Below are positions 33,671-52,512 of a stretch of 59,802 nt of DNA, piece after piece (positions within the stretch are counted from its first letter, which is position 1; every line of letters begins with the position of its first letter). The stretch is from Enterobacteria phage JenP2. The stretch lies in the sequence record NC_028997.1; one strand, given 5' to 3'. The notes beneath the pieces were generated by a model. It ran no database searches. It had not been told where the DNA came from and saw only the letters and a program-made list of their open reading frames with translations. The translations under genes were made by a program, and so were the position numbers.

Positions 33671-33738
33671 TTGAACCTCGGGGTAAGATAACAAAGGGGC
33701 AGTAAATGCCCCTTCTGAGTTTCCGAAGTGTCTACAGA

Positions 33739-38585: not shown

Positions 38586-38647
38586 ATCATAATCCTATAT
38601 AGAAAAATAAAGCTCCCGGAGGAGCTTTATTATAACATGATTTTTAA

Positions 38648-42366: not shown

Positions 42367-42395
42367 ATAATACTTAGAATTAAATTCCTTGTAAA
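42367..42395 (-). promoter_or_regulatory. candidate sigma70-type promoter (minus strand)
   Basis: On the minus strand TTTACA - 17 bp - TATTAT, about 30 nt upstream of the start at 42335; embedded in an 8-bp inverted repeat AGGGGTAT/ATACCCCT. Confidence 0.45.
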
Positions 42396-42410: not shown

Positions 42411-42929
42411 TTACAACTTACCAGTAGAACCAAAACCCCCGCGACCTGTTTCTTCTACAATACCAGAAACAATGCGCGTACGAACCAACTGCACAAGACG
42501 CGCTTGTGCAATACGTTCGCCAACCTGGACTGTGTAAGGTGCATAAGAGTCATTATGCAGACGTATTTTCAACTCGTCGCGGTAATCATGATCAATGATA
42601 CCCGTACAATTACCTAAACGAACCCCGTGTTTAAACCCGTGACCGCTACGTGAATAGACTTCCATACCGTAACCATGAGGGATCTGCAGCTTAATACCTG
42701 TGTTGAACGTATAAGCACGACCGGCATAAATAGTTACAGGTTCTGGTTCATCCGCATAGATATCAAAGCACATAGAACCTGGAGTGGCAAATCGTGGTAT
42801 TTGAGCAGTGTCCGTAAGGAGTTCCACAATTAGCTGTTCCACAGCGCCATCTTGAACCGCAATAGTACCTTTGACACTTACATCTTTGATAATATCAGAC
42901 ATATTGTCTTTCTTAGTCATGTTTTTCAC
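42411..42929 (-). CDS. dut: dUTP diphosphatase
   Basis: 172 aa; dUTPase motifs RSGHGFK, GIIDHDYRDE, RGGFGSTG. Confidence 0.85.
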   Translation of the reverse strand: MKNMTKKDNMSDIIKDVSVKGTIAVQDGAVEQLIVELLTDTAQIPRFATPGSMCFDIYADEPEPVTIYAGRAYTFNTGIKLQIPHGYGMEVYSRSGHGFKHGVRLGNCTGIIDHDYRDELKIRLHNDSYAPYTVQVGERIAQARLVQLVRTRIVSGIVEETGRGGFGSTGKL

Positions 42930-43068
42930 TCTCTTTATTAGACAGACGTTGTTCCCATTGTTGCTTTAACTGATAATAACGATAAGCGTCCTCACCAGTT
43001 TCAGCTTCCCGTTGCATACGTTCACACCATTGAACGGGACTTTCCTCACAACTCACTTCTTACACCTC

Positions 43069-43530
43069 CTAAGCGTGGCCGTTTCTCTTAATGTATTCGT
43101 AAGCATGTGATTTAAAGATTATCCGAAAATCTTCCAGGGATATTTCACATCTCGGCGGATCTTCGGGGTGATGTTTCGCTTCATCAGCGAAAAGCATGAT
43201 AGGGTTCATATACAGGACTACGCGCCAGGGCTTTTTATTCTGACGGTACATAAGAACTGGAAACTTGTCTGCTTCCAATGCACTCTTAACACACTGCGCC
43301 CACCATGTGTTAATTGATAGCTGCTCCTGTCGTTTAACTTCTACCGCATAGAAACAGGTATTTGTGATATCGCAACCACCTACAGCACTCTGATTCTGGT
43401 TACGTTGTGCTATGGGCTTTTCTGGATAAGTCATTCCAAGAGCGGCGTAAACTTCTTCGTAGATGTCATTAAAGAATTTACAAATTTCACGCTCACCTGT
43501 CTGACCTTTAGTACGAGGATTAGCTCCCAT
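43069..43530 (-). CDS. putative PD-(D/E)xK-type nuclease
   Basis: Start set to the Met of MGANP (GGAG SD), because the longer track ORF runs through an intrinsic terminator hairpin; GGCDI ... AVEVK resembles D...(E/D)xK. Confidence 0.4.
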   Translation of the reverse strand: MGANPRTKGQTGEREICKFFNDIYEEVYAALGMTYPEKPIAQRNQNQSAVGGCDITNTCFYAVEVKRQEQLSINTWWAQCVKSALEADKFPVLMYRQNKKPWRVVLYMNPIMLFADEAKHHPEDPPRCEISLEDFRIIFKSHAYEYIKRNGHA

Positions 43531-43545
43531 GTTATAAATCTCCAT

Positions 43546-43575
43546 CCAAAAAATAGGGGGTACACAAGTACCCCC
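43546..43575 (-). terminator. rho-independent terminator (minus strand)
   Basis: GGGGGTAC-acaa-GTACCCCC stem followed on the minus strand by TATTTTTTGG. Confidence 0.5.
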
Positions 43576-43716
43576 GAAAGCGAAGCATATAATAGATAAT
43601 AACATGTCAGCGAGAGGCAGCCTTCGAAAAGGGGTAATCTACCAACCACTCTCGCAAATAATGTTAACCTGTTTACGTGTTTGATTACAATACACGAATT
43701 CGTCAGAATTCACAGG

Positions 43717-43992
43717 TCATACCGTACATTTTTGCCAATGGCCCATAGAAAATGACAGCGAAGTGCAGACAACTTCCAACCCGTCATCATCACGCACCAC
43801 GGGCAAAGCTAGGCCGCTGCGGGCGTTATGTACAGTGCGGTGTACTCTATACACAGAGTTATGCGTAAAGCGCCGCGTGTTCGCGTTTGTGCAGCGTAAT
43901 AACGCTCCGATATGTACAAGTGGAGCAGGCATAGTGAAGCCAATCATTAGATCCTTCTCTTTCTTATTAGGCTGGCGTACAGTTACATTCAT
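43717..43992 (-). CDS. hypothetical protein
   Basis: 91-aa ORF; ATGA start/stop overlap with the upstream small HTH ORF. Confidence 0.4.
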   Translation of the reverse strand: MNVTVRQPNKKEKDLMIGFTMPAPLVHIGALLRCTNANTRRFTHNSVYRVHRTVHNARSGLALPVVRDDDGLEVVCTSLSFSMGHWQKCTV

Positions 43993-45527: not shown

Positions 45528-45752
45528 ATGACTCACCAAGATCTTATAAAAAGAAACATCAGAACTGCAATGAACAAGTCGGAAGACTTCTTATTTGAGC
45601 AAGGTAGTTCAATAATAAAATACGAATATATGGGATCCTCAACTGTGGTTACATTTGAGAAAGATGAGTATCACGTTGGAGATTTTTCAACACCAGATTA
45701 TGATGTGATGTTTGAATATGTCGTATGTGAGTTTTTAAAGTTGCACGAATAA
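45528..45752 (+). CDS. hypothetical protein (single plus-strand gene inside the minus-strand block)
   Basis: 74-aa ORF with its own promoter-like sequence and terminator. Confidence 0.45.
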   Translation: MTHQDLIKRNIRTAMNKSEDFLFEQGSSIIKYEYMGSSTVVTFEKDEYHVGDFSTPDYDVMFEYVVCEFLKLHE

Positions 45753-45756
45753 TATA

Positions 45757-45785
45757 ATGGGCGCATATAGCGCCCATTTTTATAA
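45757..45785. terminator. bidirectional rho-independent terminator
   Basis: ATGGGCGC-atata-GCGCCCAT stem followed by TTTTTAT on the + strand, with a T-rich tract on the minus side; between convergent genes. Confidence 0.6.
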
Positions 45786-51680: not shown

Positions 51681-52473
51681 TCGGTGAAAAAATGTACAAT
51701 TTATAAAGATTCAGCAATATACGAAAACGGCGAAGCGAAGTGTATGAAAAATAAGGGAAATTTTTGAGGATTGGGAGGTTTATAGTGATTTATATTATTT
51801 ATAAAGGGGTCTCGTGGGGTCGTCAGTAGACAACTCAAAAACAAAAAATCTTTATAAAATTTATATAAATACACACATATACACATTTTTACCTTATTTT
51901 TCATGCACTTACCTCCTTTCATTTCGTATATTAAGCGGCAATATACGAGCAATATAAGAAATATTTGTTGCGCAACAACGAGGCGCTCACAAGCTCGCGC
52001 ACGCGCATAATGCGGGCACGCGGTCTAACACAAAAGAAAATTGAATTGCAAGCGATTTTTGCTGAGGTAACTCTCGAAGCGAAAGCGATTTGCGAGTATG
52101 AATTTTTGTAGCCCGAAAACGATTCTATTTTATGGTATAAATGTCGGATTTTTCGGTGAAAGCGAGCTTTTCGGTGAGGTTGGGTGGCTGGGATCGGTGT
52201 AACTGGTAGCCCATAAAGCGAAAATAGCCGCGAAAACGGGGCGCGCAGCGCGATTAAATGGTTGGATCAGTGTAAGGGTGGCGGTGAGGGGCGAAAATGC
52301 CGCAAAATCGCTTACAGGGATGCAGGGAGTGGATCGCTATAAGGGCGTATAAGGCGATTAAATTGGAGTCTATGGTAAGGTATGGAAGAGGATTTAGGCT
52401 CTTAGAGCGCGAATGCCGGAGCTATGGGTGAGGAATATGTGGTCAGCAGGGTAGCGCGGGAGGTGGTGCGGGT

Positions 52474-52512
52474 ACAAAAACGAAAGCGCCCCGTTGGACT
52501 TCAACAGGGCGC
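52474..52512 (-). terminator. rho-independent terminator (minus strand)
   Basis: GCGCCCCGTTG-gactt-CAACAGGGCGC stem (one mismatch) followed on the minus strand by TTTCGTTTTTGT; lies downstream of the gene ending at 52536. Confidence 0.6.

Follow-up and report, generated by a model that had tools for sequence, protein, structure and literature searches.

Internal operon attenuators and leaky terminators are known from E. coli, at rplL-rpoB and rpsU-dnaG, and from the nin region of phage lambda, where intrinsic terminators lie upstream of recombination/resolvase genes. Antitermination in lambda relies on N and Q. The locus described here resembles the leaky operon terminators, as these are generally understood, in that a predicted intrinsic terminator likewise sits between genes of one direction, the ribosome-binding site of the next gene follows at a short distance, and downstream expression would depend on read-through. 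It differs from lambda in that an N/Q-type antitermination factor is known there, whereas Pfam searches of the neighbouring small proteins here found no N or Q homologue, antiterminator or elongation factor, and returned only sub-threshold zinc-ribbon matches.

The stretch of DNA analysed (the window) comprises 59,802 nucleotides of Enterobacteria phage JenP2 (NC_028997.1) and, judged by its alignments, belongs to Nonagvirus, the group of phages 9g and JenP2. Over 1.3 kb around the terminator, it shares 95–99% identity with 16 phage records in GenBank, every one of them 9g-like, among which are 9g, JenK1, JenP1, HdSG1, HdK1, BRET, SE1, ESCO3, SP8 and the BASEL phages ChristophMerian and FritzHoffmann. 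Every 9g-like record whose taxonomy was inspected is placed in Nonagvirus, Queuovirinae.

Several of these sister phages already carry annotations that bear on the locus. The HdSG1 record (MK373795) labels positions 52289-52308 as 'putative transcriptional terminator, -16.80, determined with ARNOLD', by a prediction method described with that genome (PMC6563267), and the HdK1 and SP8 records likewise carry a terminator feature here. The elements annotated in these three Nonagvirus relatives, themselves predictions, correspond to the one in the window, with the same sequence, position and predicted energy (-16.80, ARNold). The short form of the downstream gene is annotated in all eight distinct GenBank records checked (9g, HdSG1, SP8, ChristophMerian, FritzHoffmann, ESCO3, BRET and, via RefSeq naming, JenK1), with a length of 462 nt (153 aa), or 465 nt (154 aa) in FritzHoffmann. 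Both the terminator and the corrected start are already present in public sister-phage annotations, and the finding is correct, not novel; intrinsic terminators are, moreover, a routine find between early genes of phages. Our literature search found no transcriptomic, Term-seq or transcript 3'-end/read-through data for Nonagvirus or Queuovirinae.

A hairpin and T-tract ahead of the nuclease gene

The minus strand of the window carries the stem-loop GGGGGTAC-TTGT-GTACCCCC at 43556..43575, with its arms at 43575-43568 (GGGGGTAC) and 43563-43556 (GTACCCCC) and the four-nucleotide loop TTGT at 43567-43564. The stem consists of eight perfect pairs, six of them G-C, and its fold energy of -16.8 kcal/mol (z = -3.66) was matched by none of 200 shuffles. 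Directly 3' of the stem lies the T-tract TATTTTTT (43548..43555, minus strand), in which seven of eight positions are T and whose length varies by one T in either direction among relatives. An earlier note, made from the letters of the window, had described an 8-bp GC-rich hairpin followed by a T-run on the coding strand at 43546-43575, and both are indeed found there. The element lies in non-coding DNA downstream of a co-oriented gene, the stop codon of which occupies 43719-43717. Read on the plus strand, the stem is not followed by a T-run, and the predicted terminator would therefore be unidirectional and oriented with the genes.

We consider it likely that the hairpin and T-tract at 43575..43548 form a rho-independent terminator, of a leaky or attenuator type, within a 186-nt non-coding gap, and that the nuclease gene starts beyond it at ATG 43530. 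RNA polymerase would be expected to terminate at this hairpin, and to do so only partially. That the hairpin should instead be a functionless chance palindrome deserves hardly any credence. Such a reading could appeal to the observation that a loose terminator-like pattern is not enriched across the window, and it was for this reason that a strict scan was run, requiring at least eight perfect pairs, at least six G-C pairs, a loop of 3–8 nt and at least six T in eight. Over both strands of the 59.8-kb window, however, the strict scan returned the terminator at 43575..43556 as its only match, against a mean of 0.02 matches per window in 100 dinucleotide-preserving shuffles. Also against chance, the stem is kept in all close relatives, and at least three other lineages have unrelated hairpins with T-runs at that position.

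The close-relative alignment contained the window and 15 relatives from GenBank and IMG/VR, all Nonagvirus, and the stem is retained in 15/15. A G-to-T substitution cuts the stem to seven pairs in SP8, the loop is changed in locus L012, and FritzHoffmann shows an expansion of the G-run in which eight pairs are kept through G-U wobbles. The FritzHoffmann 5' arm (L021 ~785-800) holds ten G in place of five, with GTACCTC as the 3' arm and a stem of -14.6 kcal/mol; this 10-G run may be a true variant or else an error in sequencing a homopolymer.

Across Queuovirinae lineages, the position of the putative terminator is conserved while the sequence of the stem differs. The Klebsiella-phage group (Kpn2-P2, K9PH25C2, Ec1-ASingh and locus L016) carries GGGGCGC-TTCG-GTGCCC(C) followed by T7, ending 20–21 nt before the ATG, and Vibrio phage 83AMN carries TACCGCC-TAAG-GGCGGTA followed by T7, 18 nt before the ATG. 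At IMG/VR locus L027, where protein identity is 48%, ACCGCGC-AACACA-GCGCGGT is followed by TATTTTT and lies 28 nt before the ATG. Hairpins also precede the gene in three more genera, as seen in Seurat (AGCCCAGG...CCTGGGCT then TTTTT, 79 nt upstream), in PSTCR7 (GACCTATC-TTCG-GATAGGTC then T8, 179 nt upstream) and in NP1 (a hairpin of -20.5 kcal/mol then TTTT, 37 nt upstream). Terminator-like sites of six pairs occur in the window at a background of 0.19 per kb per strand, so that chance falls far short of explaining four independent hairpins that all lie no more than 30 nt from the same orthologous start codon. No hairpin precedes the nuclease gene at some ten homologous loci of greater distance; the trait is therefore one of the phage-group layout and not of the gene family. 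The earlier proposal that the hairpin marks a transcription-unit boundary or attenuator gains support from these unrelated stems and T-runs at the same place in other Queuovirinae, as well as from the independent ARNold call in HdSG1.

The nuclease and its start codon

The gene behind the hairpin (43069..43530, minus strand) encodes a predicted PD-(D/E)XK nuclease of 153 aa that matches Pfam PDDEXK_15 (PF24608) at 52 bits, against a gathering cutoff of 27, and PHROG 244. Residues D54, E64 and K66 (D...E-x-K) are invariant in our alignment of nuclease homologues (A1), and a catalytic role for the three is probable. RefSeq and PHROG label the protein 'RusA-like Holliday junction resolvase'. Unlike this naming, its matches are to PF24608 and PHROG 244: the RusA family model gave no match, the Pfam scan (E <= 0.01) returned only PDDEXK_15, and NCBIfam returned none. 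The RusA label accordingly looks like a propagated misnomer, as far as profile matches can tell. A PDB profile search found no solved relative of the nuclease at E <= 1, a single-sequence AlphaFold2 model (pLDDT 54) was too poor to use, and we found PDDEXK_15 in no paper.

The longest ORF does run through the hairpin, as the earlier note had it, spanning 43605..43069 on the minus strand and encoding 178 aa. Relative to the 153-aa form it adds 25 codons (MLLSIICFAFGGTCVPPIFWMEIYN; 43531..43605, minus strand), which are a spurious, non-coding extension. The note had also pointed to a Met with a GGAG Shine-Dalgarno at 43530, and these are present, with GGAG at 43540..43543 (minus strand), nine bases before the ATG at 43530-43528. 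In the Klebsiella-phage group, GGAG stands ~7 nt before the ATG.

Were the 178-aa ORF the real gene, with its start at 43605, the hairpin would be coding sequence that folds by accident. This frame is open in the window, HdSG1, SP8, ESCO3, FritzHoffmann and loci L013-L015, but in 9/15 close relatives it is interrupted by an in-frame stop (TAG or TGA) at codon 20, by the gain or loss of one nucleotide in the T-run, or by both. Codon 20 (TGG, 43548-43546) reads TAG in five loci (L008-L012) and TGA in ChristophMerian and BRET; the T-tract is one T shorter in 9g and L012 and one T longer in BRET, so that the long ORF is frameshifted. The downstream protein is nonetheless 98–99% identical in the relatives with a broken extension, and the extension is therefore non-coding. 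No homologue examined has the extension. The domain matches likewise set in only at the short Met, with residues 30-136 of the long ORF covering positions 2-116 of the Pfam PDDEXK_15 profile and residue 25 falling on position 3 of PHROG 244. The extension would also place a hydrophobic peptide (MLLSIICFAFGGTCVPPIFW) on a DNA nuclease, which seems implausible. In a collection of 15 billion proteins, the 153-aa sequence occurs on 84 contigs and matches JenP2 YP_009216988.1 exactly, whereas the 178-aa and 158-aa versions of the exact sequence are absent from it. On these grounds we regard the 178-aa reading as extremely unlikely.

The N-terminus itself is conserved over larger distances. Homologues at 40–79% identity that have an upstream hairpin, compared in the Klebsiella-phage group and Vibrio 83AMN (L004-L007, L016), L027, Seurat, PSTCR7 and NP1, begin M-x-(I/V)-N-x-R-x-K-G-Q, matching ATG 43530, and the same start is seen at three further loci with a tblastn match reaching residue 1. 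The conserved start residues in distant homologues with a hairpin are MxxN-RTKGQTGERE.

A third in-frame ATG (43545-43543), missed in the earlier note, overlaps the Shine-Dalgarno and would give a protein of 158 aa (MEIYNMGANPR...). It is present in all close relatives, and one 158-aa gene call exists in IMG within the protein cluster. This ATG, however, comes right after the T-tract, lacks a purine-rich ribosome-binding site and shares bases with the GGAG used by ATG 43530. The Klebsiella, Vibrio, Seurat and NP1 groups have no equivalent of it; there, a stop codon lies 3–15 codons upstream of the gene with no intervening start codon, and the eight GenBank annotations choose the short start. 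A start at 43545 thus appears very unlikely.

Taken by comparison of relatives, the predicted start of the nuclease gene is shown to be ATG 43530 (153 aa) and not 43605. The suggestion that the start be moved downstream of the hairpin is upheld by the in-frame stops and indels in relatives, by the domain matches and by the conserved N-terminus. In speaking of an 'annotated' N-terminus, the earlier note was right that a long ORF exists, but every public annotation examined uses the short start, and the gene is relocated only with respect to a longest-ORF rule. That rule miscalls the nuclease gene by 25 codons.

Leader, promoter-like sites and probable read-through

On one side of the predicted terminator lies a set of small genes, their functions unknown, the last of which ends at 43717; on the other lie the nuclease, a 47-aa ORF (43056..42913, minus strand) and dUTPase (42929..42411, minus strand). 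The last gene before the terminator encodes 91 aa (43717..43992, minus strand; PHROG 20894, unknown function) and is annotated in HdSG1, SP8, BRET, ESCO3 and the BASEL phages. The 47-aa ORF and dUTPase run in the same direction; they follow the terminator and precede the next promoter-like site, TTTACA-17-TATTAT (42367..42395, minus strand), a consensus match only (10/12) that falls in the gap after dUTPase. The latter site is flanked by an 8-bp inverted repeat, TAGGGGTA (42403-42396) / TACCCCTA (42367-42360), operator-like in appearance. A search for recurring operator or promoter motifs found no over-representation of TTACCCCTTTTC, GGGGTAC or AGGGGTA in the window.

The intergenic leader (43531..43716, minus strand; 186 nt) is predicted to contain two stem-loops in addition to the terminator (z = -3.37 for a 201-nt fold). 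Rfam gave no match, either over the whole window at gathering score or over 43450-43800 at E <= 5. No sigma-70-like site with a 16–18 nt spacer and at least 9/12 matching positions was found in 43716-43531, and a relaxed scan of the leader returned only CTGACA-15-TATGCT (43610..43584, 9/12) and a weaker 8/12 site. The distance from the T-tract to ATG 43530 is ~17 nt, too short for a promoter; together with the lack of a normal-spacing sigma-70 promoter in the gap, this argues for read-through as the most likely route of expression. The nuclease, the 47-aa ORF and dUTPase would then most simply be expressed by polymerase reading through the terminator. Such read-through in turn points to a leaky terminator or attenuator, owing to which the nuclease and dUTPase would be expressed at a lower level than the genes upstream. 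The T-tract is interrupted by an A at its second position, as would suit incomplete efficiency; this A and the required expression of the downstream genes together argue for incomplete termination. It is possible that phage-specific promoters unlike the sigma-70 consensus lie in the leader.

The weak promoter-like site at 43610..43584 would start transcripts at about the foot of the hairpin, thereby altering the role of the hairpin. It bears on a further reading, in which the hairpin would be mainly an RNA-stability element, acting either as a barrier to 3' exonucleases on processed mRNA from upstream or as a 5' protective stem-loop on a transcript from CTGACA-15-TATGCT. That site would indeed give a start near 43577, at the stem foot, and the downstream genes do require some source of transcript. 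Its 15-nt spacer is suboptimal, however, and it matches at only 9/12 positions; moreover, the Klebsiella and Vibrio leaders keep the hairpin and T-run, and no equivalent promoter-like site was seen in them by eye. A stability hairpin has, on established knowledge, no need of the conserved T-tract. A T-tract is the signature of intrinsic termination, and we hold a role mainly in RNA stability to be unlikely.

In a further reading, that of a regulated attenuator, 43636-43631/43626-43620 would form a helix with 43581-43569, tying up the terminator's 5' arm and thereby permitting read-through under some signal. Folding the leader without the 3' arm does predict this alternative helix, of 13 pairs, and its TACCCCTTTTC segment falls within a ~35-nt stretch that can be aligned with the Klebsiella-phage group. 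The helix nevertheless has a z of only -1.47, with 13/200 shuffles as stable, and the Nonagvirus sequences are too similar for covariation. The full-length minimum-energy structure favours the terminator over the alternative helix, and by inspection the alternative pairing is impossible in the Klebsiella group, where the terminator arm differs and the upstream motif is kept. The lack of an Rfam match to the leader also speaks against regulation of this kind, as does the candidate 24-aa leader ORF, which shows two synonymous and three non-synonymous changes and has lost its start in SP8. We judge a regulated attenuator quite unlikely.

The 24-aa ORF (43713..43639, minus strand) is annotated in the BASEL phages ChristophMerian and FritzHoffmann, with a GTG start 3 nt after the upstream stop. 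With no coding signature, and with the start lost in SP8, it is probably no gene.

Other features of the gap were noted in passing. SP8 carries an HNH homing endonuclease gene (L003 1985-2461) between the 91-aa gene and the terminator leader; the insertion corresponds to ~43716-43707 of the window, and homology resumes at ~43706. A mobile endonuclease has thus used this intergenic gap as a point of insertion. The alignable ~35-nt stretch (GAGAGTGGTTGGTAGATTACCCCTTTTCGAAGGC; ~43620-43655, minus strand) corresponds to ~1362-1400 of loci L005-L007 in the Klebsiella-phage group, the rest of the leader not being alignable, and could be a module-boundary or regulatory sequence. We rejected the idea that the leader is the decayed 3' end of the upstream gene of the Klebsiella phages, the upstream proteins being unrelated (E = 1.1). 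An inverted repeat that pairs both ATG contexts (I1; 43611-43599 / 43535-43523) was also set aside, with ~0.4 such pairs in this region estimated by chance and, by inspection, no counterpart in the Klebsiella group.

Place in the early block

Large ORFs of the window occupy the plus strand up to ~25.1 kb and from 55.3 kb onwards, and the minus strand in between, from ~54.8 to 25.4 kb. For phage 9g, Kulikov et al. described one 28-kb 'early or early/middle' region and proposed divergent promoters at its end (PMC4276943). The minus-strand ORF stretch of the window, a block of ~29 kb, fits this early-region layout (PMC4276943), and the terminator lies ~11 kb into it.

The early block of HdSG1 has six ARNold-annotated terminators on one strand, of which the -16.80 site is the most stable. 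Five of the six were matched, by position only, to terminator-like hairpins in the window, all on the minus strand, at 52512..52486, 45778..45756, 43575..43556, 38631..38606 and 33715..33693; a sixth terminator-like site of the block, also on the minus strand, lies near 29.4 kb, as judged from the HdSG1 record.

Two further observations concern the same block. A lone plus-strand ORF of 74 aa (45528-45752), the equivalent of 9g gp24, lies antisense within the minus-strand block, just downstream of the terminator-like hairpin after the primase gene. The 9g record describes gp24 as 'similar with transcription elongation factors'; Pfam found no match above threshold for the 74-aa ORF. ARAGORN called a tRNA-Ala (TGC) at 25835-25908 on the plus strand, inside a minus-strand 657-aa ORF (25432..27405) that corresponds to an annotated DNA polymerase subunit of HdSG1. 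With no tRNA found by Rfam at gathering score, this call is likely a false positive.

With its early block punctuated by six predicted terminators, Queuovirinae would need an as yet undescribed read-through or antitermination factor, whether protein or RNA, if internal promoters were insufficient; in a narrower version of the idea, the 186-nt leader is itself the regulated attenuator. We regard this proposal as rather doubtful. If it were true, the factor would be needed to reach the replication and 7-deazaguanine genes, and the hairpin at 43575..43556 would offer a natural assay point. Transcription may get past the six predicted terminators of the 29-kb block, and so to its distal polymerase and 7-deazaguanine genes, through internal promoters or antitermination. 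In the 9g-like early region, the terminator ahead of the nuclease gene would be one among several probable boundaries of transcription or points of attenuation, and attenuation at this site could account for low expression of a structure-specific nuclease that is potentially toxic.
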